From the IMG/VR virus record IMGVR_UViG_3300028914_000071, positions 1 through 64,000 of that record: a DNA stretch of 64,000 nt; one strand, given 5' to 3'. The notes under the pieces were generated by a model. The model did no database searches and was not told where the DNA came from. It worked only from the letters and a program-made list of their open reading frames with translations. The translations under genes were made by a program, and so were the position numbers. The stretch's first letter is position 1, and every line of letters starts with the position of its first letter. Shown one piece after another: positions 5,149 through 40,648 of this stretch. The DNA comes from a virus (Duplodnaviria > Caudoviricetes).

Positions 5149-5163
5149 TTCGAGGTGTATTAT

Positions 5164-5334
5164 ATGAAACAAGACCTTATTGAAATTGAAGCATTTTGTC
5201 AAGTAGAGGGCTGCTGTTTTGGTTGCCCATATGAAGACGAATGTTTTGACCAATATCTCATGTATGGCTTTATGCACGCAAAGGATTGGATGGAACACTT
5301 TACCTGTATTTTCTATGCGGAAGGAGAAGTCTAA
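5164..5334 (+). CDS. small Cys-containing hypothetical protein
   Basis: ATG after GAGGTG; ORF-track start at 5128 lies inside the tRNA. Confidence 0.7.
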   Translation: MKQDLIEIEAFCQVEGCCFGCPYEDECFDQYLMYGFMHAKDWMEHFTCIFYAEGEV

Positions 5335-5417
5335 TTGGAAAAATTTATAAAATATTGACTTTTTCAAAAAATTGTGTTATAATATATATAGAAAGTTAAG
5401 AGAAAGGACTTGAAGAT

Positions 5418-6188
5418 ATGACACTTAAAGAAAAAGCAACAAGATTCCTCAACGATAAGGCATCTGACCTCTTTGAGATGCTCAGAACAACAGAGCTTAC
5501 TTATGATGCAGAACTTGGTTTTGTTGAAAAGTTACAGTTTGAAGAAGCTGGTTATCACCCAGTTTATGGTATGACAAAGGTTTGCTTTGTTTTTGATGAA
5601 TTTGTAATCAAGACAGGCTTTGACTACAAGGTTACATATCCATCAATCGGTGGTGGTGTTACAAAGAAGGTTGTAGACCTCGAAGATGCTTGCGAAACTG
5701 AATATCTTGCATACAGAAAGGCTGTTGAAGAAGGTCTTGATGAGTTCTTCTTTGAAACAGATTCTCTTGGTTATGGTATCTATGTTCAGGAAAAGTGCGA
5801 AGAATCACTTCAGGATGCTAGAGTTTCTAGAGATGAATTTGATTCTATTACAAAAGAGTATAACGAGTATGAAATGGAGTGTGCAATTGATGCTCTCGTG
5901 GGTTCTATCTCAAAAGAAGAAGCTGAGGTTGACATCGACGAGTATACAACAGTTGGTGATTCTGTAAGATACATCGACTCTTATCTTAAGGAAGACTGTG
6001 TAACAAACTTTCTTCAGACTTATGATAGTGATAGAATGGTTAGACTTGCAAGATTCCTCTTTAACTATGACATCACAGATATTCACGATGCAAACGTTGG
6101 TTTCGACAAGGTTGGTAAACTTAGAATTTTTGATTTTAGTGGTTTCTGCTCTTCTACAAGAGAGCTGGTGAAAGGAGTAAAGGCATGA
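5418..6188 (+). CDS. protein kinase-like fold protein
   Basis: FVIKTG, YVQEK, DIHDANVG and IFDFSG motifs in kinase order. Confidence 0.65.
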   Translation: MTLKEKATRFLNDKASDLFEMLRTTELTYDAELGFVEKLQFEEAGYHPVYGMTKVCFVFDEFVIKTGFDYKVTYPSIGGGVTKKVVDLEDACETEYLAYRKAVEEGLDEFFFETDSLGYGIYVQEKCEESLQDARVSRDEFDSITKEYNEYEMECAIDALVGSISKEEAEVDIDEYTTVGDSVRYIDSYLKEDCVTNFLQTYDSDRMVRLARFLFNYDITDIHDANVGFDKVGKLRIFDFSGFCSSTRELVKGVKA

Positions 6189-6553
6189 TTTGGTTGATTG
6201 TAACGGTTATTTCGCTTGTGGTGTTAATTGTTAGTTTTTTAAGGGATGAGCTTGAAGTGGCTGCTGTTTTTGCAGTTCTGTTATCTCTTGAAATTATAGT
6301 AGGGGCGTGTGTTAGATACGTTGAAACACCTTCTGATATGGATATAGAAGATATAACTGCCAGACTTGAATGTGATTCAGAATATCTTAATGTTCAGGCA
6401 TATATGGATGCTGTTAAGTATAATGAACGAGTTGAGTGTACACGTGAGCTTGGTGATTCTATATGGTTCGGCGCGATTGTTAAGAAGAGAGATAAACTGG
6501 CTGACCCAATACCTCTTGAAGGCTATAAAATTACCAAAAATTGTAAGGATTAA
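6185..6553 (+). CDS. membrane protein
   Basis: Two N-terminal hydrophobic segments. Confidence 0.8.
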   Translation: MIWLIVTVISLVVLIVSFLRDELEVAAVFAVLLSLEIIVGACVRYVETPSDMDIEDITARLECDSEYLNVQAYMDAVKYNERVECTRELGDSIWFGAIVKKRDKLADPIPLEGYKITKNCKD

Positions 6554-6616
6554 GTTTCTTAACTCTTTACAAAAACAGAAATCTATGTTATAATATATAT
6601 AGAAAATAAAGAAAGG

Positions 6617-7171
6617 ATGTTGTTTATGGGACAGGAATTAACAGTTACAATGCAGTTTAAAAATAGAAAAACCGGTGTAAAGTCAGAATTTCTTATGGCT
6701 TATTGGCGCAAAGGTTGGTCAATGACCGATGAAATTATAAGGTTCATCAATGATACCGCTAGTTCAGAAATTATTAGTGAAGACGAGCAGTCGTATATAC
6801 TTGAATCTAATTTTATTTACAGTTTAAAGGATTTTCTTTACGAGCAGTTAGGTGATACAGAGTCTTACTCCTTTAGTAATTCATTTTGGGGTTCGTACAC
6901 TTGTTATCAGCAGACAATTCGTCAGTTTAGAAATATAACAGCATGGATTCAGTTTTATGCAAATCGTTTTAATGTGCTTGATGAAATTGAAAATGCAACA
7001 GCAAGTGATGAACAGCCATGTTTTGATGGTTGTTTTGACCCAGACGCTCTTGGAGATATGTTTGTAGAGTATTCAGAAAGTGAAGCAAAAGATAAGGAAA
7101 AAGAATTTGTTTATATTTTACATCACCTTGGTGATTATGATATAACAATTGAAGTTCTTAACTCTTATTAA
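6617..7171 (+). CDS. hypothetical protein
   Basis: ORF after promoter and SD. Confidence 0.8.
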   Translation: MLFMGQELTVTMQFKNRKTGVKSEFLMAYWRKGWSMTDEIIRFINDTASSEIISEDEQSYILESNFIYSLKDFLYEQLGDTESYSFSNSFWGSYTCYQQTIRQFRNITAWIQFYANRFNVLDEIENATASDEQPCFDGCFDPDALGDMFVEYSESEAKDKEKEFVYILHHLGDYDITIEVLNSY

Positions 7172-7243
7172 TCTCTTTACAAAAACCGAAATCTATGGTA
7201 TAATAGATATAGAAAGTGAGAGAGAGAAATCTCTCACAAATAC

Positions 7244-7320
7244 TGGCCTGTGATGAAGCGGTCTAACATAGTAGCCTTTGACACTACCATTTTTCCTGGG
7301 TTCGAATCCCAGCGGGCCAA
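7244..7320 (+). tRNA. tRNA-Gln (TTG)
   Basis: Cloverleaf, loop CTTTGAC. Confidence 0.9.
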
Positions 7321-7352
7321 TCAAATTTTTAATTTAGAAAGGATTTTTAATT

Positions 7353-7751
7353 ATGGGTTATTACACAAGATTTTATATGGGAATTAGAGATAAAGAGGGT
7401 TATGTTAATGATGAACATAAACTTTATGATAAAATTGCTTGTAAGGTTTATAATGTTTGGGCAGGCACAGATATAACTGACTTTTCAGATGGTCAACTTG
7501 AAACCGCAAGAGAAACCCTTGAAGAGTTTTTCGAGGGTGAAAAAGAAGGCAAGTGGTATGAGCATGAGGAAGATATGAAAAAGATTTCCGCAGATTTTCC
7601 CGGCATTGACTTCGTTCTTGAAGGTCTTGGTGAAAGACGTGATGATTGGTGGATAAAGGTTTTTAGGGATGGCGAACTTGTTAGTGAGCATTATGCTGAA
7701 ATTATCGCTCCAAAGTGTCCAAAAATGTATTTTGCAAATCCGGATTTTTAA
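7353..7751 (+). CDS. hypothetical protein
   Basis: ORF with SD. Confidence 0.85.
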   Translation: MGYYTRFYMGIRDKEGYVNDEHKLYDKIACKVYNVWAGTDITDFSDGQLETARETLEEFFEGEKEGKWYEHEEDMKKISADFPGIDFVLEGLGERRDDWWIKVFRDGELVSEHYAEIIAPKCPKMYFANPDF

Positions 7752-7914
7752 AAAGTGAAACACTTTACAAAATCTGAAATTTATGTTATAATAAATATAG
7801 AAATTGAGAAAAGAGTATTTCAAAACATTTGTGAAACTTCGGTTCGATTCCGGGGTAGGTGCTCTAAGGAGCGAACTGCTGGTTGCAATATCAAAGTCAA
7901 TTTCTTAAAAATAT

Positions 7915-7986
7915 AGGCTTCTAGTTTAACGGTAGAATGGCTGCCTCCAAAGCAGAAAGATGTGGGTTCGAATCCTACGGGGCCTG
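7915..7986 (+). tRNA. tRNA-Trp (CCA)
   Basis: Cloverleaf, loop CTCCAAA. Confidence 0.9.
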
Positions 7987-8015
7987 TCCATAGAGGAGAT
8001 AACCTCTATAAAAGA

Positions 8016-8230
8016 ACCGTGTTTGTCAACTACACGTTAATATAAGTTGAAAATTGCGCCATCAGCACCACCCAATGTGGATGGACGTGGAAGTAATGGT
8101 CCACCCTGGCACCCAAATGATAGTAATATCATGTGTCAGGTAGCCGAGAGCATGAAGACAAGTTCTTCTCCGACAATCGGACGCACGGGAGAGCGAAACC
8201 ACACCCCTACCGGGAGGTTGCCCGGATAAT
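8016..8230 (+). ncRNA. unassigned structured RNA
   Basis: Stems CCTGGCAC/GTGTCAGG, ATGATA-GTAA-TATCAT and CCGGG/CCCGG between two tRNAs. Confidence 0.5.
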
Positions 8231-8318
8231 GCACAGGTGCCGAAGTGGTCATAACGGCGTAGACTTGAAATCTTCTGTGGCGGAAGCCCCGTGGGTTCGA
8301 ATCCCACCCTGTGCGCCA
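8231..8318 (+). tRNA. tRNA-Ser (TGA)
   Basis: Long variable arm, loop CTTGAAA, encoded CCA. Confidence 0.92.
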
Positions 8319-8323
8319 AATAA

Positions 8324-8398
8324 TTCCGCTTCGTCTAATTGGTAGGACGCCGCCCTCTGAAGGCGTGAATGGGAGTTCAACTCTCTCAGCGGAAACCA
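8324..8398 (+). tRNA. tRNA-Gln (CTG)
   Basis: Loop CTCTGAA, encoded CCA. Confidence 0.9.
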
Positions 8399-8402
8399 AA
8401 AT

Positions 8403-8475
8403 GCCGTTGTAGCCCAGTTAGTAGAGCGCGTGCCTGAAGAGCATGAGGTCGAAGGTGCGAATCCTTCCGGCGGCA
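8403..8475 (+). tRNA. tRNA-Phe (GAA)
   Basis: Loop CTGAAGA. Confidence 0.9.
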
Positions 8476-8481
8476 CTTAAT

Positions 8482-8554
8482 ACCCTTGTAAGCTAATTGG
8501 ATAAACTAAGGGTCTTCTACACCTTTTTTCTCAGTTCAAGCCTGAGCAAGGGTA
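8482..8554 (+). tRNA. tRNA-Arg (TCT)
   Basis: Loop CTTCTAC. Confidence 0.88.
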
Positions 8555-8602
8555 CTTAATTTATAATCTTCAGCCCGTTAGAAGTAAAATGGCGGGGCAC
8601 CT

Positions 8603-8692
8603 GGTCACATAAGCCTAATGGTAAGGCAGTTGTTTGCTAAACAATGAGTAATCGGCTATGCCGGTGTTTAGGTTCAAGTCCTAATGTGACCG
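8603..8692 (+). tRNA. tRNA-Ser (GCT)
   Basis: Long variable arm, loop TTGCTAA. Confidence 0.9.
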
Positions 8693-8701
8693 CTTAATAA
8701 T

Positions 8702-8777
8702 GACGGTATGGCGAAGTGGTTTAACGTGGCTGGCCGCAACCCAGTTATTTTCGTAGGTTCGAATCCTACTACCGCCT
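8702..8777 (+). tRNA. tRNA-Cys (GCA)
   Basis: Loop CCGCAAC, U73. Confidence 0.88.
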
Positions 8778-8780
8778 TAT

Positions 8781-8854
8781 GTGCCATTAGCTTAATTGGC
8801 TAAAGCAACTGACTCTTAATCAGAAGACTCTGGGTTCAAGTCCCAGATGGCGCA
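8781..8854 (+). tRNA. tRNA-Lys (CTT)
   Basis: Loop CTCTTAA. Confidence 0.9.
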
Positions 8855-8859
8855 CTTAA

Positions 8860-9030
8860 TGTATTTATGTTTCAAAGCTGCGACATGAGGTTCGTTGATT
8901 TTTGGCATAGTGCATTAACGTCCCTGTAAACGAGAACAGGCGCGAACATATTCAAACCTATGTGTTAAGGTGAAAGGTTAAGACTTGGCGGCAACCGAGA
9001 TAGTAGTAGCGCGCGCTACATTGCCTATAA
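8860..9030 (+). ncRNA. unassigned structured RNA
   Basis: Nested stems ACATGAGGTT/AACCTATGT, CGTTGAT/ATTAACG, CCTGT/ACAGG, CTTGG/CCGAG. Confidence 0.45.
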
Positions 9031-9032
9031 AT

Positions 9033-9106
9033 CGGCATGTGATGGAACTGGCATACGTGCTCGGCTAAGAACCGAGATTTTGTGGGTTCGAATCCCACCT
9101 TGCCGA
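9033..9106 (+). tRNA. tRNA-Leu (AAG), short variable region
   Basis: Stem CTCGG/CCGAG, loop CTAAGAA, A73, Leu-type D loop. Confidence 0.8.
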
Positions 9107-9109
9107 CTT

Positions 9110-27429: not shown

Positions 27430-27956
27430 TAGTCCTCATTCCCTTCCTCTTCAATTTCAATACAGAAATCTGATTCCCAAAAACTGAAAGTAAAACAGCC
27501 ACCTTCTACCAAATCCTTACATTTTTCCAGTGCATCTTCAATTTCTTCCGCAACCGCATTGTCAATTTCTGATGCTAAATGACCGCTGTATTCTTCATGG
27601 TCATAATCATCCTCAATCATATCATACCACGGAAGGTCAAATTCATCTCCATTATCTTTACGTGCGCTAATACCGACATTTTGAATAAACCATTCAACCT
27701 TCGTATCACGGTCAACCTCTTTGGAAAGTGCCTGTGCTAACTGCCATAAGGTTGTAAAATAGTTGCCGTCATAGGTATAACCGACATAATGTTCAACATC
27801 AAAAAATCTGCCGCTATAAATGTCTTTACCGTTCATAAAAGCAAGTGTAACATCATTTACAAGTTTGTGAGAGAAAACCTTCCTTAATCCTTCATCTAAC
27901 TTGTCAAGGTTTGAATAAGTTTCAGCGCTACGGTCATTATAAATTACTTTGTACAT
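27429..27956 (-). CDS. acidic hypothetical protein
   Basis: Promoter, leader, SD. Confidence 0.85.
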   Translation of the reverse strand: MYKVIYNDRSAETYSNLDKLDEGLRKVFSHKLVNDVTLAFMNGKDIYSGRFFDVEHYVGYTYDGNYFTTLWQLAQALSKEVDRDTKVEWFIQNVGISARKDNGDEFDLPWYDMIEDDYDHEEYSGHLASEIDNAVAEEIEDALEKCKDLVEGGCFTFSFWESDFCIEIEEEGNED

Positions 27957-28159
27957 AATGGTAATTCCTTTCCGGTTTTTAGAACTTGAACCTGTTCATG
28001 TTTTGTTTTATCTTATGTATATATTATAACATAGAATATAGTGTTTGTCAATAGTTTTTCTAAAAAATTTTTTATGGTATTTAATGGCAAAGTGCCCGGG
28101 CGAAAAGGCAAAAATTACCATTTCTACCATAAAAGGGAACCGCCCCAAAGGGCGGGTAA

Positions 28160-28672
28160 TTAATGGCAAATAATTTTCAAATCGTTATATATTCCTATAT
28201 CTCCCGATGACATTAAGGAAAATTTATACATTACGGAATCAATGTACAAATTAACAAGATTGTCAGAATATTCATAGTTAAAGGTTGCGTGGTCATAATC
28301 TCGCTTTACTATGGTTCTCCAATTTATTCCAAGTGGATTGTCGTTCATATCCTTGGCATAAGTGGTACTTTCAAACCATTCTATTGCCATTTTAAATGTT
28401 AAATCTTGGTCAGTATAAAAAATTGCGTCCGTTAGTTCATCAAGTTCAAAAAGCTGTTCTTCAATACCTTCTATTTCATATTCTTTTACACAGCGTATAG
28501 CAAAGTTATCAAATGTTACTGCATGAGGGCGGTTGATGGTGTTTTCGACAATTTGTTTAGCGATTGCCATATCTTTGTTAGTAAGAAGTTCATTTATTCT
28601 TACTATTGCACCTCTTTTGGTATGTATCTTTTCATCCTCTTTTGTTACATAATTGTTAATTGTAAAATACAT
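28160..28672 (-). CDS. hypothetical protein
   Basis: ATG after GGGAGG. Confidence 0.8.
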   Translation of the reverse strand: MYFTINNYVTKEDEKIHTKRGAIVRINELLTNKDMAIAKQIVENTINRPHAVTFDNFAIRCVKEYEIEGIEEQLFELDELTDAIFYTDQDLTFKMAIEWFESTTYAKDMNDNPLGINWRTIVKRDYDHATFNYEYSDNLVNLYIDSVMYKFSLMSSGDIGIYNDLKIICH

Positions 28673-28674
28673 AA

Positions 28675-29046
28675 TTAGTCCTCCCATATTAAGTTGATGT
28701 GAAAATCATTTATGCCTACTGATGTAATTATCATTTCTTCATGTCTGTTATATGCTCTGTGTAATTCATCTATTAAATAGTTATCAACAAATGCATAAGC
28801 TGTATTGTATATTTCTTCCGAAAGTACGTGATTTTGATGCATAAGAAGTAAATCACCTAAGCGGAAACTACCAAGTATTTTATCTTCGTTGTTAATTTCT
28901 GCGACAAGACAAGGCATAGTAGGGGTTAAATAATACCAAGTTGCTATAATTCCTTCAGCATCACACTGACTTAAAATATAACCCACCATTTCTGTCAATG
29001 AACCTGTTTCAAAGTCATCACACTTAAATTTACAATTCTTTACCAT
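28675..29046 (-). CDS. hypothetical protein
   Basis: Promoter, leader, SD. Confidence 0.85.
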   Translation of the reverse strand: MVKNCKFKCDDFETGSLTEMVGYILSQCDAEGIIATWYYLTPTMPCLVAEINNEDKILGSFRLGDLLLMHQNHVLSEEIYNTAYAFVDNYLIDELHRAYNRHEEMIITSVGINDFHINLIWED

Positions 29047-29240
29047 ATGGTTATCCTTTCCGGTTTTTAGGAGTTATCACCTCTCCATCTATGTTTATAT
29101 TATACCATAGTTTATGATGTTTGTCAAGTGTTTTTCTAAAAAATTTTCGCCGCCAAAATATGGTAAACTGCCCGGGCGTTTCGCCAAAATTTTCCAGTTT
29201 TGGTATATAAAGAAACCGCCCTTTCGGGCGGCATAAATTA

Positions 29241-29633
29241 TCAATAATATCCTTCGAGTTCATCTTCTGACTTTTTGTCTGATATGCATTGACTTATATA
29301 ATATAAAAGACAAGAAAAATTACAATTTTCACTATCAATTGTAAATTTAGTGTCCCTTTTCCATTTAATTCCATTTATAAGTGTTATATTATGGAGAATA
29401 TCCTGTCCTTTGTCAAGGTCGAACATACCAATATCTCTCAAAATGGCATTTTCTTCCTCTAACTGTTCTATTCGCTTTTCTAATTGAATAGTCTTTTTAA
29501 AGAGTGCGGCAAGAACTTCCATTGTTTCCATTTTCTTACCGCTTTTATCATAAAAGCCTTCTTCCCAAAAACTTTTTCCGAGATATTCCATTTCTTCTGA
29601 TTCTATCCAGTCTTCTTCTATTATGCCTTCCAT
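29241..29633 (-). CDS. hypothetical protein
   Basis: ATG after GAGGTG. Confidence 0.8.
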   Translation of the reverse strand: MEGIIEEDWIESEEMEYLGKSFWEEGFYDKSGKKMETMEVLAALFKKTIQLEKRIEQLEEENAILRDIGMFDLDKGQDILHNITLINGIKWKRDTKFTIDSENCNFSCLLYYISQCISDKKSEDELEGYY

Positions 29634-29644
29634 ATTCTCCCACC

Positions 29645-30088
29645 TCACATTCTTAAAATCGCATTGAGTATGTCAAAGATTTCCTTTTCTGAGTATGCAC
29701 CTTTGCCCCATTCTTTTCTAATCTCTTCGTTATCGTCAAAGAGTATGCCTTCGCCTAAAGAGTGTTTAGGCGTGCCGTATGGTACAATAAGGATTTCATC
29801 CCATTCTACAGATGGCATATGTTTCCTGAGCCACTGGAGTTTGGCATCTTTTGTACGTCTGTCAAATTCCGGTGTACTTTCCTTTGAACACCATGAAACG
29901 ATTTTAAGAGTGAAATCTAAATCCTTCTGTAACTTATTGAGAAGTTTGGCAAGTCTTGACAGATTGAGCCTTGCCTTCGCATCTTTATAAGGTCGTACAG
30001 AATAATTTCTTAAATCTTCCAGCCAGCCCTCAACTTCATAAAAATTGTTAAGAGTGCCGTCCATGTCAAATACTATTTCTTTTTCCAT
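29645..30088 (-). CDS. HAD-superfamily nucleotidase-like hydrolase
   Basis: IVFDMDGTL and LFDDN motifs. Confidence 0.8.
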   Translation of the reverse strand: MEKEIVFDMDGTLNNFYEVEGWLEDLRNYSVRPYKDAKARLNLSRLAKLLNKLQKDLDFTLKIVSWCSKESTPEFDRRTKDAKLQWLRKHMPSVEWDEILIVPYGTPKHSLGEGILFDDNEEIRKEWGKGAYSEKEIFDILNAILRM

Positions 30089-30553
30089 AATTTAGTCCTT
30101 TCTTAGTCGATTGCCAAAATTCCGGCAATCATAGTTAAACCTATTAGTATTAAGGCGGTCATTTAATCCCTCCCTTACTGTAATTATATTATACCATATT
30201 TGCGGGCAGTTGTCAATAGTTTTTTAAAAATTTTTTCGCCGCGAAAATATGGTAGATATGGAAATTACTGGAAAAGTGCCCGGGCGTTTCGCCAATTTTT
30301 ACCAATTATGGAATATAAGAAAACCGCCCTTTCGGGCGGCGCTTTTATTCTTCTTCAAAGTCAGTGTCACTTCGCAACTCATTTAGTTCATGCCGTAAAG
30401 ATTCTATTTCTTTTGCCATAAAGTACAAAAGTGTAAACATAGTTTCGGGATTATGCTCTAAGTCATAATAATTTTCAAAAAATTCAAAACGACCATCCAT
30501 TTTTCTTTTCATCCTCTAATTTATCAATTAATTTATTTCTTCTATTCTTCTTA

Positions 30554-30922
30554 TTAACGGTAAAGAACTATAAATTCTTTTGGTGCTAAACCTTTATCAA
30601 ACAGTCTTACTGCCGCAGAAAAAATTTCCTCTTTAATATCAACAACTTTTTCACCATATTCTAACCTTTCGTTACAATAACCCTTATCAATGTAACCTGA
30701 GCGGTCAATATATGCAAAATCTTCACCATCATCGGAGTTAATAAGAACATTTTCAAGATAATGCCTATCCGTAAAGTGTTCAATACCTTTTTCCTCAAAA
30801 AAGTCATCCCAATCAAATATATTACGAGAATCTACATATTTACCATATCCCATTTCTTCCATTACCATAGATTCCCAATACCATATGCCTATAACGGGAT
30901 ATATTTCAAATCTTTTATCCAT
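30554..30922 (-). CDS. hypothetical protein
   Basis: SD AGGAGG. Confidence 0.85.
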   Translation of the reverse strand: MDKRFEIYPVIGIWYWESMVMEEMGYGKYVDSRNIFDWDDFFEEKGIEHFTDRHYLENVLINSDDGEDFAYIDRSGYIDKGYCNERLEYGEKVVDIKEEIFSAAVRLFDKGLAPKEFIVLYR

Positions 30923-30925
30923 AAC

Positions 30926-31165
30926 TTAATCCTCCTTTTTACCACTCTTAAAGAAACTACCAACAACTGCCAAAACAATTGCCCATAATGCCGCCTGTTT
31001 CCACGTCCATACGGCAATAATTCCCAACTTACAGAGTGACCACATAGCAAGTCCCACCATAAGAACTGTACAACCATAAGTAAGAGCAATGACAACTAAA
31101 ATAATTAAGCAACCAATAGCCATTTCTGTTCCAGTCATTTCCTTTTTCTTAAAATCTAATTTCAT
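30926..31165 (-). CDS. small membrane protein
   Basis: Hydrophobic ORF after leader. Confidence 0.8.
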   Translation of the reverse strand: MKLDFKKKEMTGTEMAIGCLIILVVIALTYGCTVLMVGLAMWSLCKLGIIAVWTWKQAALWAIVLAVVGSFFKSGKKED

Positions 31166-31279
31166 AGTAAAATCCTTTCCGGTTTTTAAGACTTATAACC
31201 TGTCTTTATCTTATGTATATATTATAGCACATAATCGCGGCAATGTCAATAGTTATTTTTGTTTTAAATCTTTTATCCA

Positions 31280-31504
31280 TTAAAAATCTTTTCCTTTCTT
31301 CCAAAGAATTGGCGAACCTAAGCCGGCACTTTGTATCATACAGTTATATTTTTCACTAACTGTATCATAGCAAGGACAATCGCCACAATCTTCCCAAGGA
31401 CCAAACTTACACATTAAATGCAAATTACGTTTTAAAATTTTAATCTGCTCCTGTAATTGTAAAATCGTTTCTGAATTAGCTTTCATAGGCACATCAGTTA
31501 TCAT
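31280..31504 (-). CDS. Cys-rich small protein
   Basis: CGDCPC motif; own promoter and leader. Confidence 0.8.
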   Translation of the reverse strand: MITDVPMKANSETILQLQEQIKILKRNLHLMCKFGPWEDCGDCPCYDTVSEKYNCMIQSAGLGSPILWKKGKDF

Positions 31505-31712
31505 GGTTAATTCCTTTCCGGTTTTATAGAGTTATAACCTCTCTTTATCTTATGTATATATTATAACATAGTTTTGCGGTAATGTCAATACCTTTTTAAA
31601 AAATTTTTTCTGCCATTAAATGCCAAAATGCCCGGGCGTTTCGCCAAAATTTTCCAGTTCTACCATAAAAATGGGGGCGGTAGCCTTCTTCCGAAAACTA
31701 CCGCCTTTACCA

Positions 31713-32438
31713 TTAAAATGGCAACCATCTTTGGTATCCAGTTTCTTCCACATATTGCTGGAATTTTTTCCAAGCACAAATGCACGACCATTCCTGTTTT
31801 TTACCAGATTTGAGAACCCATAACAAAATTTCATATTCTATCATAACATCGGCAAGTCCTGTATGTTCTTCCTCAAAATTGGCATATGCTTCGCCCTTCA
31901 AATATCGGTACACTATTTCAGCACCGTACTTATAATTACCTTTTTCTGACAAATAACCATGACGGTCACAAAATTCCAAATAGGAAGGATTTAACAGTCG
32001 AGTCTTTACTACTGCCGCCATGATGTCACGAATTTCCAGTCCTAACATTTCATACCTTGCACCAAATAACCTACTAAGTGCGGCATTATCGAAGGCAACG
32101 TTATAAGCATACATCTTTTTAATGTTGTACTTCTGAATATCAGATGTAAATAATATCCAAAAACTCTCAATGCTTATACATCTGTACTTCCTGTTTTTAG
32201 CAGAATTCTCATAATCCTCTAAAATATCTTTTGTGTTCTTTAAGTGCATTTCTTTACACAGACCAGTTTCGAGGGAATTTAACAGATTCTGCCAAACTGC
32301 ATAAGGTAATGCAATTGACCTTTTTTCGTAAATATTGCCGGCATTATCTGCCACAATATAACCAATATTGTACGGCAGACAAGTGGAATTTCCTTCCACG
32401 TCTAATACTATAAATTTTTCCTTTTTTCTTCCACGCAT
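31713..32438 (-). CDS. DEDDh 3'-5' exonuclease
   Basis: VLDVEG (ExoI), AYNVAFD (ExoII), HTGLAD (ExoIII). Confidence 0.82.
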   Translation of the reverse strand: MRGRKKEKFIVLDVEGNSTCLPYNIGYIVADNAGNIYEKRSIALPYAVWQNLLNSLETGLCKEMHLKNTKDILEDYENSAKNRKYRCISIESFWILFTSDIQKYNIKKMYAYNVAFDNAALSRLFGARYEMLGLEIRDIMAAVVKTRLLNPSYLEFCDRHGYLSEKGNYKYGAEIVYRYLKGEAYANFEEEHTGLADVMIEYEILLWVLKSGKKQEWSCICAWKKFQQYVEETGYQRWLPF

Positions 32439-32653
32439 TTTTTGGTATTCCTTTCCGGTTTTAACGACTTGTAACCTGTCGATTTATTATGTATATATTA
32501 TATCACATTTTGCGGCACTTGTCAAGAGATTTTTAAAAATATTATTTTTCCATAATTGGAAAATGCTGGAAAAGTGCCCGGGCATTTTGCCAAAATTTTC
32601 CAGTTTTGGATAAAAATAAAAGAGGGCTGAACCGAAGTTCAACCCTCGCTGGA

Positions 32654-33079
32654 TTAATTTGTCTTAGCTTCCTTTTTTGCCTTCGCCGCCGCTTTTTCCT
32701 TTTCTACCTTTTCTTTGTTCTTTTTGGCTTTTTCTTCCTTTTCCTTAGCTTCCTTCTCGTCTTCCTCTACCTTTTTCTGCCATACGCTACCCTCATATTC
32801 CCTGTCATATTCTGTAAAATACTTTTTGTTTGTCTGTCTGTCCTTATAGTCCTTGACAGTAGGGGAGAATGTTACGCACGCTTCAACGGTAAATCCTTCC
32901 TTTGTTTCAATTGTGAGAACAGCTACAGCTACCTCAGACTTGCCAACGATGGTAACATTTTCCTCACCGTACTTAGCCTTCATAGCTTCAACAACACTGT
33001 CAAAAGCTTCCACTCTGATAGCTTCCTTGATTTCACTGAGTTTGAAGTCCTTTTCCTTGATAGTTCTAAGTTCTGTCAT
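32654..33079 (-). CDS. hypothetical protein with Lys/Glu-rich tail
   Basis: Promoter, leader, terminator. Confidence 0.85.
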   Translation of the reverse strand: MTELRTIKEKDFKLSEIKEAIRVEAFDSVVEAMKAKYGEENVTIVGKSEVAVAVLTIETKEGFTVEACVTFSPTVKDYKDRQTNKKYFTEYDREYEGSVWQKKVEEDEKEAKEKEEKAKKNKEKVEKEKAAAKAKKEAKTN

Positions 33080-33329
33080 TTTAATTACTTCCTTCCGGTT
33101 TTAACGTCTTTACCTGACAATAATGATAATATGGTTTTTAGGTGTTTTCTTCCCTTCACCTTATGTATATATTATAGCACAACTTTGTGCTATTGTCAAT
33201 AGTTTTAGAAAAATTTTTTAAAAAAGTTTTTTATGGTAGAAATGGAAAAATCTGGAAAAGCGCCCGGGCGATTCGCCATAATTTTCCAGTAATGGTATAA
33301 AAGGAAACCGCCCCAAAGGGCGGCATAGA

Positions 33330-33536
33330 TTAATTATCGTATAAATCAAGTGCTTCAAGACTTGCTACATCACAATTATCATCAAGATACTCATATAGTT
33401 CTTTTTCTGTGCTTCCTGTATATGATTCACCTGTCAAATCTGCAATTGTTGACAAAACGTCTTTAAGTGCGGAGGAATATTCAGTGTATGCACAAGTGGA
33501 ACAACCCATAACGTTTACTATGTATATTTCTTTCAT
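33330..33536 (-). CDS. hypothetical protein
   Basis: ATG after AAGGAG. Confidence 0.75.
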   Translation of the reverse strand: MKEIYIVNVMGCSTCAYTEYSSALKDVLSTIADLTGESYTGSTEKELYEYLDDNCDVASLEALDLYDN

Positions 33537-33537
33537 T

Positions 33538-33933
33538 TTACGACTCCTTTTCTTCAAGAAACTCAATACACTTTTCCGCCCAAATAACCATACTTTTCTC
33601 ATGTTCTAAGTAATCTGCTATATGTTCTACATTATCATTCTCAGAAGTAACATACCATTCATATTTATATGGAATATCTAAACATTTAGCAAGAATACCA
33701 TAATCTGCATCCGTTTCGGTGAAATAGTCGTGGAAATACTTAACTAAATAGTTTCTTTCCTTTTCTGAAAGTCCTATTATTTTAAAGGGATAGCCACACT
33801 CAGCAATTAAATTTATTACCTCCTCTACCTCGTTAACTTTGTTTCCGGCAAGTACATCAAAATCGGGAATTTTATATTCAAGTATTTTGAAGTTTAAATT
33901 TATTGCATCGCCTTTACATATTTTAATATACAT
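33538..33933 (-). CDS. hypothetical protein
   Basis: Operon ORF. Confidence 0.8.
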   Translation of the reverse strand: MYIKICKGDAINLNFKILEYKIPDFDVLAGNKVNEVEEVINLIAECGYPFKIIGLSEKERNYLVKYFHDYFTETDADYGILAKCLDIPYKYEWYVTSENDNVEHIADYLEHEKSMVIWAEKCIEFLEEKES

Positions 33934-33937
33934 ACTA

Positions 33938-34153
33938 TTACCTCACATTCTGTACAAATACGGCAACATTAAGTGCCAAGAAAATTCCATTAATGATAGC
34001 TCCTGTAAGAACCTTATTTCTGGTAGAATCTACCAGCCCTATTGAACTTGACAGGATAAACATAGGTGCTGACCAATTACTACCAGCGTAGCACAGTCCA
34101 GCCGCCAAAGCACAGCTAAAAATCATGATGTAATCAATACTTCTTAGTTTCAT
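33938..34153 (-). CDS. small membrane protein
   Basis: Hydrophobic ORF after leader. Confidence 0.8.
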   Translation of the reverse strand: MKLRSIDYIMIFSCALAAGLCYAGSNWSAPMFILSSSIGLVDSTRNKVLTGAIINGIFLALNVAVFVQNVR

Positions 34154-34347
34154 GGTTAAAAGTCCTTCCGGTTTTATAGAGTTATAACCTCTCTTTATCT
34201 TATGTATATATTATACCATATTTGCGGCGAGTTGTCAAGGGGTTGACGAAAAATTTTTTATGGTATTTTATGGCAAAATGCCCGGGCACTTTGGAAGATT
34301 TTGGTAATAATGGGATAAAGAGAAACCACCCCGAAGGGTGGCATAAG

Positions 34348-34905
34348 TTACCATTTGATGTATAATGGATGGCAGAAATTTAACATACCGTCTAAGGTTT
34401 TTTCAGAATTATCAATTTTTGCTTTAAAACCATGATTTTGTAAATAAAGTTCTACATCTTTTACACAGTAATCTATAGGGAGGTCAAAGGTAAATTCACG
34501 GTTACCGTGTTTAGCTTCGGCTATAATTGCTTGTTCTATATATTTAAGCGTTTTTGAAATCTCCTTACGTCTTTTAAGTTCTTCTTTATCTTTTTTTAAT
34601 TGCTTTTTGTATTCTCCCTTATTAATTACTTTTTGTGCTTTTTCAAGTGTGGTTAGTTTACGTGGTTTAACCACCTCATAATCAAAAGGAAAATTTCCGA
34701 GTAACCAAATAAAAACAAAATGAGTTGTTACAAAGCGAGCAAATATAATAAATACCGCCAAATCTAACATATTATCAGTAAGTTCCATATTTCCAACTAT
34801 AACGGCAGTAATAGCGGTGAAAAATAAATTAAAAATCATTCCAAAACTAAAAAAAAGTTCAAGAGGTGAGTTGTTGTTAATTATTCCTTTTATCTTTTCA
34901 TTCAT
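34348..34905 (-). CDS. membrane-anchored hypothetical protein
   Basis: Two hydrophobic segments then basic domain. Confidence 0.8.
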   Translation of the reverse strand: MNEKIKGIINNNSPLELFFSFGMIFNLFFTAITAVIVGNMELTDNMLDLAVFIIFARFVTTHFVFIWLLGNFPFDYEVVKPRKLTTLEKAQKVINKGEYKKQLKKDKEELKRRKEISKTLKYIEQAIIAEAKHGNREFTFDLPIDYCVKDVELYLQNHGFKAKIDNSEKTLDGMLNFCHPLYIKW

Positions 34906-35097
34906 AATGGTATTCCTTTCCGGTTTTTAGGACTTATCACCTGTCCTTATGTTTATATTATATCATATTTCGCCGCACTTGTCAACTCTTTTCTAAAATT
35001 TTTTTATTTCCATATTCTACCAAAACGCCCGGGCGAAACGCCAAATTTTACCAATTTTACCACAATAGGAAAGCCGCCCATTTCTGAGCGGCAGTTT

Positions 35098-35463
35098 TCA
35101 TCCGATAAATCTGTATTTATTTGGTGTGTCTTTTATTATCTCAATAAATCCCGCATCCTGACAATTTCTTGCAATGGCGGTAAACTTTGACGAGTTCATC
35201 TTGAAGTCATATTCACTGGTAAGTTCTGACACTGTTGCCGAATACTGTACTAAGATTTCATCCATTGTGTACGCTTTTCCTACATCAAGCATACTGAAAA
35301 GTTTTCTGCCAATTTCTGTATTGGTGTTACGCTTTTCCTCGGAATTTTTTGCAGACCTTGCATTTTTACTGTTAACACTGGCAAGAAGTGCCTTCGCTTT
35401 ATCCGTGATTTCATCGCTAAGATTTGCGGCTATTACTGCGTTATAAAATTCTCTCTGTGTCAT
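35098..35463 (-). CDS. putative DNA-binding protein (paralogue of 37193-37513)
   Basis: MTQREFYN start; winged-helix-like C-terminus. Confidence 0.75.
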   Translation of the reverse strand: MTQREFYNAVIAANLSDEITDKAKALLASVNSKNARSAKNSEEKRNTNTEIGRKLFSMLDVGKAYTMDEILVQYSATVSELTSEYDFKMNSSKFTAIARNCQDAGFIEIIKDTPNKYRFIG

Positions 35464-35476
35464 GGTAATTTCCTCC

Positions 35477-36016
35477 TTATTCTACTACCGTTACTGCGCC
35501 ATCTGCAAAACGGTAAGTGTTTCCAGTATCAATGCTAAAAGCTACATAATTGTTTTTAAGACCTATACTCTTAATAGTGCCGATAAATTCATAGCGTGAA
35601 CCACTACTAATTGTAAATACATCATGTGGTTTGAGTTCAGACAGCTTTTTCTTGCTTATAAACTTAGGGCGCTCAATATGATTGTACTTAGCCCAAACCA
35701 CACCCAGTCCAATAAAGACCGCAAAATTATCCTTTTTGTTACAATAAGTTTCCACAAACTTACCATTGCGAGTATTGAGAAGACCTACTTTACGTGCCTT
35801 CTTGTTAACAGTAATCACATAATTACCAAAAGTAAAGCTGTCGGCGCCTTCGTCAGTGTAGTCGTGATGTTCAAAAGTTCTGTAAACTTCGGTCATCACA
35901 TCATTAAAATCCACTGGAAAACTTGCCTGACCACTATTTACCATTGCATTTGCCATACCAATGATAAATGAATGTGCCTGTGAGAGAGTCCAGTTTTCAA
36001 ATGTAAGATTTTCCAT
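35477..36016 (-). CDS. hypothetical protein (paralogue family)
   Basis: NTRNGK...DNFAVFIGLGVVWAKY. Confidence 0.8.
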   Translation of the reverse strand: MENLTFENWTLSQAHSFIIGMANAMVNSGQASFPVDFNDVMTEVYRTFEHHDYTDEGADSFTFGNYVITVNKKARKVGLLNTRNGKFVETYCNKKDNFAVFIGLGVVWAKYNHIERPKFISKKKLSELKPHDVFTISSGSRYEFIGTIKSIGLKNNYVAFSIDTGNTYRFADGAVTVVE

Positions 36017-36245
36017 AGTTAAAATTCCTTCCGGTTTTATAGACTTGTTACCTGTCTTTGTGTTTTGTTTTATCTTATGTATATATTATAGCATAGAATA
36101 AGGTACTTGTCAATAGTTTTTCTAAAATTTTTTAAAAATATTTTTATGGTAAAAACGGAAAAAGATGGAAAATCGCCCGGGCGTTTCGCCATAATTTACC
36201 ATTTATGGAATATGAAAATGCCGCCCATTTCTGAGCGGCACATTT

Positions 36246-36779
36246 TTACTGATTCATGTACTTTTTGTAAAGGTCGATAAAGATAACGTATACATTGTCC
36301 ATGGTAATTTTTTCCGGGTCGAGATGTTTGCAAGAAACTGATTTACCAGTTTTTGTATTTATGAGCATCACCGTAACACCGTCAAAGAGTTTGTTATTAA
36401 TTGTTATAATATAATCATTACGACCATATTTTCCGCCAAGTTCCTGTAATATACCATATCTTGTCACCTTAAGTTCGGCATAAAGTCGAGAACAAATAGT
36501 ATTAAATTTAAACTCAACCTTATCATGTTCAACACCGCCACCAACGAGTTCCAAAAACTTCTTCTTATACCAAAAAGTGGTTCTTACTGGCTTAGGACGT
36601 GGAATTTCCACCATTTGGTCGAAATCAAAAACTTTTAAATCACCGTTAGACTGGTTACAACCAACATAACCATTTACATCTTGGAATTTAGTTTTACCTA
36701 CAAAAAGGTAGTCATAAACACCTACACTAAAGAAATCACCATTGTTTAATGTTGATACAAGAACTTTTATTGTTTTCAT
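36246..36779 (-). CDS. hypothetical protein
   Basis: Coupled ORF; INTKTGK motif. Confidence 0.8.
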   Translation of the reverse strand: MKTIKVLVSTLNNGDFFSVGVYDYLFVGKTKFQDVNGYVGCNQSNGDLKVFDFDQMVEIPRPKPVRTTFWYKKKFLELVGGGVEHDKVEFKFNTICSRLYAELKVTRYGILQELGGKYGRNDYIITINNKLFDGVTVMLINTKTGKSVSCKHLDPEKITMDNVYVIFIDLYKKYMNQ

Positions 36780-36979
36780 TACTTTACCCTCCTTAATGTC
36801 ATATCACCAACGGAAACAGAATCAATGAACCCATTGCTAAAACGCTTTAATGGGCAGTAGGTTAACCATCTCTGTTCTTTATTCATTAAAGAAGTAAACA
36901 TTCTTACAGCTACATAGCTATGCGGTGAAGTGTAAGTATTTTCCGGCTTGCCGATAAATCTGATTTCATACTTTTCCAT
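36779..36979 (-). CDS. hypothetical protein
   Basis: Promoter, leader. Confidence 0.8.
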   Translation of the reverse strand: MEKYEIRFIGKPENTYTSPHSYVAVRMFTSLMNKEQRWLTYCPLKRFSNGFIDSVSVGDMTLRRVK

Positions 36980-37192
36980 ATTGGTATTCCTTTCCGGTTT
37001 TTAGGACTTATCACCTGTCCTTTACTGTAATTATATTATACCATACTTTGCGGCACTTGTCAACACTTTTCTGAAAAAATTTTTTGGTAGTTTATGGCAA
37101 ATTGCCCGGGCGTTTTGGAAAAATTTTCCAGTTCTACCATAATAAGAAAACCGCCCTCTTTCGAGAGCGGCTTCCAGTTTTTGCCGTGTTTA

Positions 37193-37513
37193 TTACTTTA
37201 CTTTTGTGTACTGCTTAGGTGTGCTGTCGTCTGAAATAACCTTATCCTTTAAGATTTCTCTAAGGATATAGCCAATCTTTGACGAGTTGTACTGACCGGC
37301 AAACATTGCCACAATATCTGCGTTAAGGTACTTCTTACCAGCTTCCATTTTGGCAAGAATTTCCTCACCGAGTGCAACATTAGCTTCACGCTTAGAATCC
37401 TTCGCCTTGTCCTCTTCCGCAAACTTAGCAAGATACTTGCCAGCAATTTCCTTAGCTTCTGCGCTGATAGATGCATTTGTAGCTACTTCGTTGTAAAATT
37501 CTCTAAGTGTCAT
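37193..37513 (-). CDS. putative DNA-binding protein
   Basis: MTLREFYN start. Confidence 0.8.
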   Translation of the reverse strand: MTLREFYNEVATNASISAEAKEIAGKYLAKFAEEDKAKDSKREANVALGEEILAKMEAGKKYLNADIVAMFAGQYNSSKIGYILREILKDKVISDDSTPKQYTKVK

Positions 37514-37780
37514 AATTTTTCTACCTTTCCGTTTTAACGTCTTGAACGTGACAATGAATATAAATAATGAATGATTTAAGGTTTTAGGTTTTTGTTTCCC
37601 TCAACCTTATGTATATATTATAGCATAGATTTATTAGAATGTCAATAGTTTTTCTAAAAAAATTTAAAAATTATTTTATGGTATAATTGGAAAAATTTGG
37701 CAAAGTGCCCGGGCATTTTGGTAGAAATTGCCATCTCAATGGTAAATGGAAAAGCCGCCCATTTCTGAGCGACTTTAGTT

Positions 37781-37930
37781 TTACTTTGTGAATCCCATGT
37801 CAATTTTTGCCTGTTTTCTCGCTTTTGCCCTTTCATTGAGGGCGGTGAGGTAAGCAATTGCCTCCTCCTTTGTTAGTATGTAATGTTTTCCCTTTTTGGT
37901 AACATGAAGTCCTTTTTTAATTTCTGCCAT
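37781..37930 (-). CDS. small basic protein (49 aa)
   Basis: ATG 2 nt after the upstream stop; ends before terminator. Confidence 0.6.
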   Translation of the reverse strand: MAEIKKGLHVTKKGKHYILTKEEAIAYLTALNERAKARKQAKIDMGFTK

Positions 37931-37932
37931 AA

Positions 37933-38421
37933 TTATTTCTCCCTTGTAAATACTGTTATTGTGCTAACCATTGTAACTTTGAATGTACCAACTTCTACCA
38001 GTCTATCCATGACTGTTCTGAACATATCTGCATTATAACCGAAATCTTCACGGTATCCGCCATGCTTTACCATTTCACCAAGTTCTGCCATGAGATGTGA
38101 CATAACGTATGCGCCGCCAACTTCTGTGTTTTTGAGAATAATATCCATATAATCCTCATACTGAGTTTTGCGGTGGTCATTTCTCTTAATGGTTGTCTTT
38201 TCACGCTTTACCATTTTTAAAGCTCTAAGAATATCATCAACACCTTCTTCAACCTCTTCAATGTCAGAAGTGTCCAGCTGTGCCATAGCTTCTGTAGCCG
38301 CATTAACAGCTGCAAGTGCTCTGCAAAGATTTTCCTTTACAGCTTCGTCATTAAATTCTACAGATGCTCTGTAGCCCATTGGTGAAAATCTTTCTGTTTC
38401 AACTAAAGTCTGTGTAAACAT
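37933..38421 (-). CDS. hypothetical protein
   Basis: Promoter, leader. Confidence 0.82.
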   Translation of the reverse strand: MFTQTLVETERFSPMGYRASVEFNDEAVKENLCRALAAVNAATEAMAQLDTSDIEEVEEGVDDILRALKMVKREKTTIKRNDHRKTQYEDYMDIILKNTEVGGAYVMSHLMAELGEMVKHGGYREDFGYNADMFRTVMDRLVEVGTFKVTMVSTITVFTREK

Positions 38422-38752
38422 ATTGGTAATTCCTTTCCGGTTTTAACGACTTGAACCTGTCGATAGTAAATTAGTTTTCTTAGGGTTTAGGTCGTTTCCC
38501 TTACCCTGTAATTATATTATATCATATAGGGGCGCATTTGTCAATAGTTTTTTTAAAATTTTTTAAAAATTATTTTATGGTAAATATGGAAGGATTTGGC
38601 AAAGCGCCCGGGCATTTTGGTAGAAATTACCATTTATGGATAAAAAAGAATGGACGGTATAAACCGTCCAAACTTTTAAGAAACAACCTACGGAGGTATG
38701 AAAATATTGGGATGGGACTTTTTGGTGGGAAATCCCTCAGAAACCCATAAGA

Positions 38753-39250
38753 TTAGAAATCTTCCTTAGTTGGTAAAAGTGAGTAAATTGTGCCGTAACG
38801 ATATACACGGTGAGTAATTACTTTACCCTCTTTTATAAGGCGGTCCATACATACAGTAACTATATGGTCATGCCCGTAGCACTGGTTATCAAATTTGGTA
38901 TCTTTTTTTGCGAAAGCCATGTTAGAGTTGGCAAAACTTGCTAAAAGATTCTTAGAATACCACTCACCCTCTTTCATATTTGCAAGGAACATTTTGGTGT
39001 ATTCTTCCAGATATGTTTCGTTTCTCTTGATTCTCTTTGCCTTCTTTGTAGCTGTCATAGCATCATGGCAGAATTCGGCAATATTGTCATAATCATCTTC
39101 ACTGATGTTCTTTAAGCTGTCAATAGCTTCTTTAAGAGCGCTGGTAACAGCTGGCAATGACTTCTTTGTTGACAGATAGTCTTCACTGTGAGAAAAAATT
39201 GCTTCAATGTTAAGTGACTTAAGTGTGTTTGGTGTAGAGTTTCTTTTCAT
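38753..39250 (-). CDS. hypothetical protein (similar layout to 37933-38421)
   Basis: Helical N-terminus, winged-helix-like C-terminus. Confidence 0.8.
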   Translation of the reverse strand: MKRNSTPNTLKSLNIEAIFSHSEDYLSTKKSLPAVTSALKEAIDSLKNISEDDYDNIAEFCHDAMTATKKAKRIKRNETYLEEYTKMFLANMKEGEWYSKNLLASFANSNMAFAKKDTKFDNQCYGHDHIVTVCMDRLIKEGKVITHRVYRYGTIYSLLPTKEDF

Positions 39251-39519
39251 GGTAATTAGTCCTTCCGGTTTTATAGTCTTGTTACCTGACTTTAGAATTA
39301 TTGTTTACTTAGGGCTTAGGTCGTTTCCCTTACCCTGTAATTATATTATAGCACATCTTAGTCTGTTTGTCAACACTTTTTTAAAAGTTTTTAAAAAATT
39401 TTTTTTCGCGGCGAAATATGGAAGAATTACCATTTTCTGGAAAACCGCCCGGGCGATTTGGTAAAATTTACCAATTCTACTATACAAAAGTGCCGCCCAT
39501 TTCTGAGCGGCAAAAAGTC

Positions 39520-39972
39520 TTAAATCATTACAAAAGCATCGGCTCTCATGATATTATATCCACCAGTTGTCTTATCGTCATCATAGATAATATCACCATT
39601 TTTATCCGGACCATTTGCAACATGGCGGTGAGCACCAAATCTGCCATAAGTTACAAATTCTTCTCCAATCTGAAGGTCTTCCGCTTTTATCCATTTTCCA
39701 TTGAAACATGGTGGAATTTGCTGGATTCCCATTGCTCTCAGCATTACCAGTGCTACACCAATTTCTTCATAAAATGTATCATTTGGATGCGTCTTAGCTT
39801 CCCAGCTTTTTACGCCACGACTGTTGACACGTACTAACGTAACAGTATTTGTCTTCCAGTTAGTGTAGCAGTCATAGTGAGTTGTCTTATAGTTCTTTGA
39901 AGCAAATTCTTCAAAAGCCGCACGAATTGCCTTGATAGCCGCATTAATGTCACGATAGTTAAAATTTTTCAT
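39520..39972 (-). CDS. hypothetical protein (paralogue family)
   Basis: HPNDTFYEEIGVAL. Confidence 0.82.
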   Translation of the reverse strand: MKNFNYRDINAAIKAIRAAFEEFASKNYKTTHYDCYTNWKTNTVTLVRVNSRGVKSWEAKTHPNDTFYEEIGVALVMLRAMGIQQIPPCFNGKWIKAEDLQIGEEFVTYGRFGAHRHVANGPDKNGDIIYDDDKTTGGYNIMRADAFVMI

Positions 39973-40315
39973 AGTAAAATCCTTTCCGGTTTTTAAGACT
40001 TATAACCTGTCTTTATCTTATGTATATATTATAGCATATCATAGCTCATTTGTCAAGCGTTTTTAAAAAATTTTTTCGCAGGATAGCTAATGGATGTAGC
40101 TCCCAGCTCTGCTCGTAGCTCCCATATATTCCATATATTCCCAGACTGCCATGATATGGGAGAGATGTAAGAATTTGGCGGCGAAATCAAGAATTGGAGA
40201 AATTGGTAAAATCTGGAAAATCGCCCGGGCATTTTTCCACAATTTTCCAGTAATACCATAAAAGGAAAACCGCCCATTTCTGAGCGGTCTTCCAAATGGA
40301 GGTATATATGGTCAA

Positions 40316-40648
40316 TTAGTGGATGATTTCTTCCTTAATATCCCACATCAGTGCGTCACGCACTCTGCGAAGTTTAGTCCATATGCAACCGGCGGTAAGT
40401 TCCAGTATATGGTCATCACCATCAAACCTTTCCAAACAATCAATAATCGGTTCATATGTTTTTCTGAATAAGTCGGCATAGTATTCAACCGCAAATGCCT
40501 TGTCTTTATATTCATCATAGTAGTCGGCAAGGTTGTCAATAGTTTCCCATGCGCTGTTGACATCATCAACTGTATGGTCATTGTTATCATTGATAACTGC
40601 TGACATAGCGGCAATAAGTCTATAAGCGTTTTTAAGATTAAGTGTCAT
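40316..40648 (-). CDS. hypothetical protein
   Basis: ATG after GAAAGGA. Confidence 0.8.
   Translation of the reverse strand: MTLNLKNAYRLIAAMSAVINDNNDHTVDDVNSAWETIDNLADYYDEYKDKAFAVEYYADLFRKTYEPIIDCLERFDGDDHILELTAGCIWTKLRRVRDALMWDIKEEIIH

Follow-up and report, generated by a model that had tools for sequence, protein, structure and literature searches.

A predicted pseudoknot repeated next to the Shine-Dalgarno sequence in cassette leaders of an uncultured bovine-gut phage

The DNA analysed here (the window, 64,000 nt) is the first 64 kb of the 77.5-kb virus record IMGVR_UViG_3300028914_000071, which CheckV rates as ~43% complete. It stems from an uncultured bovine-gut phage with a genome size of roughly 180 kb; for a relative whose helicase is 89% identical, the genome is complete and measures 180.6 kb, with direct terminal repeats. 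From ~27 to 50 kb the minus-strand genes of the window are arranged as ~27 short cassettes, and fourteen cassette leaders between 27966 and 40012 share a conserved core of ~28 nt within a whole leader of ~30 bases. Comparative analysis predicts that this leader is an H-type pseudoknot: a first helix (P1) of 4 bp and free sequence encloses a loop whose GGU(U) pairs with (A)ACC of a downstream AAAACC box, forming a second helix (P2) that ends directly at the Shine-Dalgarno sequence (SD). Covariation supports the predicted P1 and P2 down to relatives at ~50% protein identity. An initial annotation of the same DNA had described a hairpin with a free AGGU loop in front of an unusual SD. The loop and the SD motif are real, while the loop is not left unpaired, since loop and box change together; because the loop pairs with the box, the motif is read as a pseudoknot rather than as a free loop combined with an odd SD.

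All fourteen minus-strand copies given in the initial annotation were found again, and its eight stem sequences proved right, with 56 of 56 pairs formed. Taking each span from the 5' arm of P1 through the end of the SD, the stem GAAC/GUUC belongs to copy 1 (27966-27997; loop AGGUUCAA, box AAAACC followed by the SD, ATG at 27956) and GGAG/CUCC to copy 2 (29054-29086; loop AGGUGAUAA, ATG at 29046). AGAC/GUCU recurs in copy 3 (31173-31205; loop AGGUUAUAA, ATG at 31165), copy 9 (36026-36057; loop AGGUAACAA, ATG at 36016) and copy 14 (39980-40012; ATG at 39972), the leaders of copies 3 and 14 being the same. AGAG/CUCU is found in copies 4 (31512-31544; ATG at 31504) and 7 (34163-34194; ATG at 34153), and CGAC/GUCG in copy 5 (32449-32481; ATG at 32438), which precedes the gene of a 241-amino-acid protein used as search anchor for relatives, and in copy 12 (38431-38462; ATG at 38421). 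GGAC/GUCC forms the stem of copy 8 (34914-34946; ATG at 34905), whose -10 box lies just 10 nt upstream, and of copy 10 (36988-37020; ATG at 36979), and AGUC/GACU that of copy 13 (39260-39291; ATG at 39250). UGUC/GACG, which includes a U.G pair, occurs in copy 6 (33090-33119; loop AGGUAAA, ATG at 33079) and in the variant copy 11 (37523-37553; box AAAACGG, ATG at 37513). Copies 6, 12 and 13 have long leaders with an additional 5' hairpin. As previously claimed, the loops read AGGU(N1-3)AA in 13 of the 14 copies and ACGUUCAA in the remaining one, copy 11.

Each of the four P1 pairs is altered on both sides among the fourteen window copies, and RNAalifold returned the same hairpin as P1 from these sequences. 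When the P1 and P2 pairs were scored jointly, none of 500 shuffles attained either the covariation score or the proportion of paired cells of the real data, and when the 3' partners were shifted by 1-3 columns, pairing fell from 94% to 25-47%. The box together with the SD, allowing up to 2 mismatches, matched 17 times in the window versus 2.7 expected, and the 13 matches with 0 or 1 mismatch are leaders. A covariance model built from the hairpin only was searched against 360 kb, comprising the window and relatives found via the conserved 241-amino-acid cassette protein, and detected 64 distinct elements whose P1 is 98.4% paired. From other samples, 41 further elements (P1 97.5% paired) came out of a metagenome scan whose pattern constrained just one of the four P1 pairs. 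In a control in which the loop-plus-box pattern was kept and the stem left free, 80 chance matches were obtained in IMG/VR, none of which formed four of four stem pairs. The window lineage is represented by 61 distinct elements with an AAAAC(C/G) box, which together display 13 different stems and are fully paired in 60 cases. A fifth P1 pair is possible in 4 of the 14 window copies. The hairpin alone is weak (-0.8 to -3.0 kcal/mol); being marginal by itself, it would need the second helix and the conserved tertiary bases.

P2 was assessed through the joint variation of loop and box, as parsed from the covariance-model alignment. Among the 61 lineage elements, loop position 2 and box position 6 combine as G-C in 53, C-G in 4, U.G in 1 and A.C in 3, the three A.C elements carrying AAGG-type loops with a shifted pairing register. 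For the 41 metagenome-scan elements the terminal P2 pair is G-C in 37 and C-G in 3, and it is unpaired in one. Within the window, copy 11 has an ACGU loop and has lost one box C, which turns the terminal P2 pair from G-C into C-G; the paralogue of copy 11 in a near-identical phage shares its hairpin and has the usual loop and box, the loop G>C change and the lost box C being the only differences. The relative locus L114, whose copy of the 241-amino-acid anchor protein is ~50% identical to that of the window, combines the loops AGAUG, AGGUG and GGCUG with the boxes CAU, CAC and CAG, respectively. One P2 pair is A-U in 7, G-C in 5 and C-G in 2 of the 15 distinct copies at this locus, with one outlier, and 0 of 500 shuffles reached the observed score; two L114 copies are identical over 41 nt save the two paired P2 positions. 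Loci L116 and L123 have an AUGU loop with an AACGG box, corresponding to a U.G pair, and P2 reads GCGG/CCGC at locus L120. A GAG/CUC pairing in L123 (~5700) was left out of the counts as ambiguous, since a stronger alternative hairpin exists there. Permuting the boxes among the 33 distinct loop/box types gave a mean pairing score of 5.74 +/- 0.26 versus 7.45 observed, and 0 of 10000 permutations reached 7.45.

The unpaired positions of the leader are conserved as well. L1 is a single A in 60 of the 61 distinct elements, L2 consists of N1-3 followed by AA, with the loop ending in AA in 58 of 61, and the A-rich L3 consists of two variable nt followed by AAA. In small H-type knots the L3 adenines line the P1 minor groove, and by analogy the conserved unpaired bases of the phage leader would fit the A-minor/triplex pattern typical of such knots (PMC11625349). 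On the 3' side, GGAAAGGA, a complement of the 16S rRNA 3' terminus, follows the P2 3' strand with zero gap. Relatives have AGAAAGG or AGAAAUGGAG after P2, which are likewise complements of the 16S 3' terminus, and the metagenome-assembled genome (MAG) holding a related contig has the 16S 3' end CCUCCUUUCU. The near-fixed SD distance proposed in the initial annotation was also borne out: the 3' arm of the stem ends exactly 2 nt before the A-run in every copy, whereas 10 to 68 nt separate P1 from the -10 box. This fixed distance to the SD and variable distance to the promoter imply that the element is part of the translation-initiation region rather than of the promoter. For the same reason, an anti-termination (nut/put-like) function was rejected. 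Rfam 15 covariance models gave zero matches on the leaders, both at the gathering score over the whole window and at E<=10 over 27900-40400; elsewhere in the window only tRNAs and ROOL were matched.

We give about an even chance to the reading that the leader is a constitutive, portable cis-acting stability and translation module on early mRNAs, and the motif probably protects and boosts early messages. The A-rich leader would fold into a compact knot flush against the SD, and this knot would keep the SD and the AUG open regardless of the open reading frame behind the leader. The helix formed by the SD and the anti-SD may stack on P2, and the knot could hinder 5' decay enzymes, the expected outcome being strong early expression that is independent of context. 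In Bacillus, 5' stem-loops and ribosome binding are known mRNA stabilisers (works cited in PMC3997798). Orthologues of one gene differ between lineages: some have the knot leader, others a plain strong hairpin that abuts AGAAAGGA, and a few are unstructured there; this swapping of knot and plain hairpin suggests that the leader modules are interchangeable and generic. A self-folding leader would make shuffling cassettes plug-and-play, so that any newly acquired gene might be expressed reliably. A more far-reaching proposal, which we regard as doubtful, is that the SD-abutting knot constitutes a new translation-initiation signal on whose preformed helix the 16S 3' end stacks upon pairing, and which acts as a portable ribosome-recruitment and insulation device; a phage factor or small ligand might also switch the knot and so time a host-takeover regulon.

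Several observations weigh against the stability and translation module or against the pseudoknot on which it builds. The copies are paralogues, so that the pair counts overstate independence and reduce to roughly five to seven independent compensatory events. P2 comprises just 3-4 bp, and in some relatives it has at most 2 bp or is absent (AAAACAG boxes; AAGGA loops with ACCAG). The predicted 5' tails before P1 reach up to ~60 nt and the knot is often not 5'-terminal, unlike classic stabilisers. Moreover, the knot is present in only 14 of the ~27 cassettes with the same promoter, forming one contiguous block, which fits a separately regulated class too.

This last point, which places several leader classes behind one promoter type, favours an operator at which a trans-acting phage or host RNA-binding protein would switch the early-gene block on or off together at the post-transcriptional level, similar to the action of RegA or the gene 32 protein on leaders in T4. 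The A of L1, the AA at the loop end and the A-run are conserved across all lineages, and the leader lies immediately 5' of the SD, a position at which translational repressors bind. We nevertheless consider such an operator unlikely. The conserved unpaired bases are those expected for the tertiary contacts of an H-type knot, and the sequence of P2 varies among relatives, with three versions in one genome, which is awkward for recognition of sequence and compatible with recognition of shape. Plain hairpins are found instead on orthologous genes in other lineages, and the cassette proteins lack Pfam domains. CsrA (PF02599) had zero matches in the phage record of the window or in the complete ~180-kb relative, a search of phage genomes only; a RegA search of the same two sequences gave no match, which is a weak negative as its control also matched nowhere. 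The initial annotation had inferred a binding site for one translational regulator, or else a ribosome standby element; such a regulator or a standby role may exist, yet the conserved loop can be accounted for without a regulator, as it pairs with the AAAACC box. The analogy to CsrA sites drawn there is weak: the SD has GGA, and the loops contain GGU in 49 and GGA in 4 of 61 elements and, in the AGAUG type of L114, no GG. The same variation bears on a simpler reading, namely that there is a small hairpin only, with no pseudoknot, whose AGGU loop itself serves as a standby or SD-like site or is recognised by a CsrA-like protein, while the AAAACC box is a separate translational enhancer. The AGGUGAU loops of copies 2, 8 and 10 are complementary to an AUCACCU stretch of 16S rRNA, and P2 is short, and weak in some relatives. 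A loop bound to an unchanging rRNA or protein would be expected to stay constant, however, and the joint changes of loop and box in the window lineage (G-C, C-G, U.G), in L114 (A-U, G-C, C-G) and in L120 (GCGG/CCGC) therefore count against a free loop, as do the AGAUG loops of L114, which are not SD-like, and the lack of CsrA matches in the two phage sequences searched. We judge this reading to be quite improbable.

Still less weight is given to a preQ1-I-like tiny riboswitch that senses a metabolite and tunes early-gene translation. The preQ1-I aptamer (RF00522; PMC11625349) shares the architecture of the phage leader, being a ~30-nt H-type pseudoknot with a short P1 of 4-5 bp, a P2 formed between loop and 3' tail, an A-rich L3 and the SD at the 3' edge. 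In that aptamer, however, the specificity cytosine that immediately precedes the P1 3' strand (AC or UC) is strictly conserved, and L1 has a conserved U or UU (PMC11625349), whereas the phage leader has AA at the first and A at the second of these places, in the proportions given above. Rfam gave no match at E<=10 either, and nothing ties the leader to queuosine genes: QueC and TGT were not found in the phage record of the window or in the complete ~180-kb relative. The phage P2 stops just before the SD, leaving the SD core uncovered and the SD neither buried nor sequestered, and there are ~15 elements per genome before unrelated genes, fourteen of which in the window are unrelated ORFans. A conserved alternative fold was not seen; one that hides the SD was rejected since pairing with the SD is possible for GUCC-type arms only. 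The leader thus resembles the preQ1-I fold, yet lies outside that family. A feature of the DNA itself, that is, a recombination or operator site in a mobile promoter cassette, or a hitch-hiking remnant of recent duplication, would agree with the shuffling of cassettes, different ones being joined near the promoter in other cattle-gut contigs, and with the identity of copies 3 and 14. It is very unlikely, as the stems vary freely with pairing kept and compensatory changes extend down to the relatives at ~50% protein identity. The U.G pairs of two copies, which would be C.A on the opposite strand, work on the mRNA strand only and imply that the selected molecule is the sense RNA; together with the covarying stems and the spacing, which is fixed to the SD and variable to the promoter, they agree with the initial annotation in favouring an RNA structure over a DNA operator.

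Leader pseudoknots and shared post-transcriptional signals have precedents in phages. The leader pseudoknot of T4 gene 32 is a nucleation site for autoregulation of a single gene and lies far 5' of the start, and RegA of T4 controls many early mRNAs through sites that are unstructured. The leader described here is likewise a phage leader pseudoknot and likewise marks many early messages with one post-transcriptional signal near the ribosome-binding site; unlike in T4, a homologous protein was not found in this phage. SAS and ESAS of Cluster K mycobacteriophages are conserved asymmetric SD-containing sequences of unknown function located directly upstream of many non-structural gene starts, and are conserved across relatives before different gene families (PMC3203893). 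They differ from the phage leader in sequence and host phylum, SAS is not tied to a repeated promoter, and in the inverted repeats of ESAS the authors saw no RNA-type compensation (PMC3203893), whereas both helices of the phage leader covary. The leader sequence does not match the 13-nt consensus that SAS show 3-7 bp ahead of start codons; the resemblance is functional only.

The PeSL cassettes of T4-type phages (PMC2839356, PMC4122927) share with the window a repeated terminator and a near-consensus sigma-70 early promoter before ORFans, plastic regions and modular shuffling. However, the PeSL stem-loop is the upstream terminator, while the phage leader fold is transcribed, next to the SD and downstream of the promoter; PeSL belong to the T4-type lineage with Gram-negative hosts, and no pseudoknot has been described for them. 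The combination that defines PeSL, a terminator stem-loop and a sigma-70-like early promoter before ORFans at shuffling boundaries, is seen in the cassette and not in the leader fold. Among the Bacillus 5' stabilisers covered by references in PMC3997798 (the aprE 5' stem-loop with its ribosome-binding site, STAB-SD and the SP82 polypurine element), 5' structure or ribosome binding similarly protects Firmicutes messages, and in related phages the leaders with a plain hairpin resemble this class. These stabilisers consist of a simple hairpin or an SD-like tract located at the 5' end, whereas the phage knot is placed by the SD and often far from the 5' end. SPO1's module for host takeover (PMC6873191) is also a small early-gene cluster with strong promoters and strong ribosome-binding sites in a large phage of Firmicutes; SPO1 is not reported to share a structured leader among its genes, and the two show no relationship in sequence.

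Structured 5' leaders and SD-adjacent H-type knots are already known; in the literature no description was found of a repeated leader pseudoknot on phage early genes. The leader is a good candidate for a new RNA family. It would represent a new natural RNA fold of very small size (~28 nt), missing from Rfam and occurring in ~15 copies per genome, and its covariation is unusually clean for an element so short. As the leader sits where the ribosome lands on what would be the first expressed genes of a large gut phage, it may offer a simple system for questions on SD-adjacent structure, including ribosome recruitment and mRNA survival in Firmicutes, and possibly a compact insulating leader for synthetic biology. 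If it instead binds a factor or ligand, it would define a post-transcriptional regulon of host-takeover genes.

Each cassette opens with the intrinsic terminator of the previous unit, continues with a GCCCGGGC palindrome and an A/T tract, and then has its promoter and leader, behind which lie one to three small genes. The promoters are perfect sigma-70-type sequences (TTGACA-17-TGnTATAAT), and 12.5 kb of the cassette block contain 15 of them along with at least 14 terminators; the pseudoknot leader stands behind 14 of the 15 promoters between 28.0 and 40.1 kb. Numbered like the leaders and likewise on the minus strand, these are the promoters of cassettes 1 (28023-28051; 12/12 matches), 2 (29099-29127; 12/12, extended -10), 3 (31221-31249), 4 (31560-31588), 5 (32497-32525), 6 (33171-33199), 7 (34210-34238), 8 (34957-34985), 9 (36085-36113), 10 (37035-37063), 11 (37617-37645), 12 (38516-38544), 13 (39345-39373) and 14 (40028-40056). 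In the lone RNA run, which has low-depth contigs and possibly includes DNA, one contig (32330-32827) spans a promoter, which could reflect read-through transcription or DNA. Pfam detected zero domains in the proteins behind the 14 leaders, and PHROGs gave almost no matches, none of them informative; by analogy, these unrelated ORFans would fit the early "host-takeover" ORFans of SPO1 (PMC6873191). The helicases of cultured relatives are at most 35% identical to that of the window, so there is no close cultured relative, and megablast of the leader region against GenBank phages gave zero matches. DNA of the window is present in bovine-gut metagenomes of several studies.

The GCCCGGGC palindrome occurs at 29 sites in 27095-50456 (e.g. 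32576-32583) versus 0.11 expected, one per early cassette. A longer imperfect palindrome, CTGGAAAA..GCCCGGGC..TTTTCCAG, is centred on it; the site lies after the terminator and before the next promoter's A/T tract, and could be the operator of a dimeric regulator or a recombination site; L114 and L116 have a different box in its place. In contigs from other bovine-gut DNA runs, different cassettes are linked to one another at the A/T tract or the -35 region (30235/37083, 36133/37638, 31609/32578 and others). These joints suggest that the order or set of cassettes differs between related strains, with PeSL-like shuffling, although joints at repeats may be assembly artefacts. The stretches 31161-31249 and 39968-40056 have identical promoter-proximal and leader sequence before different genes, a sign that only the regulatory unit was recently duplicated or converted.

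A second leader module on the minus strand is a promoter-proximal hairpin with a purine-rich, AAGGGAAAC-like loop. It is located at 33140-33165, 37580-37612, 38485-38512 and 39315-39341 and in leaders at 40.7-44.3 kb, and thus accompanies four long pseudoknot leaders as well as many cassettes without the pseudoknot; comparable 5' hairpins, with AAGGAAA in the loop, are present in relatives. The plus-strand part of the window contains 23 tRNA genes (5075-13914) and a full-length ROOL RNA (9119-9702, 293 bits). There, a second promoter family (2203-22888) drives the tRNA and replication side; its start region is conserved as TTGACTTT or TTTACAAAAA, followed by TATGTTATAAT and then ATATATAGAAA, and its leaders are short and unstructured. 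In two of the relative loci, a BrxL-like protein (BREX Lon-type ATPase) adjoins the cassette block (L120:15848-17263 and L123:20211-20759), and at L120, which lies within the 2.2-Mb MAG GCA_001899395.1, a DNA methylase gene is also near.

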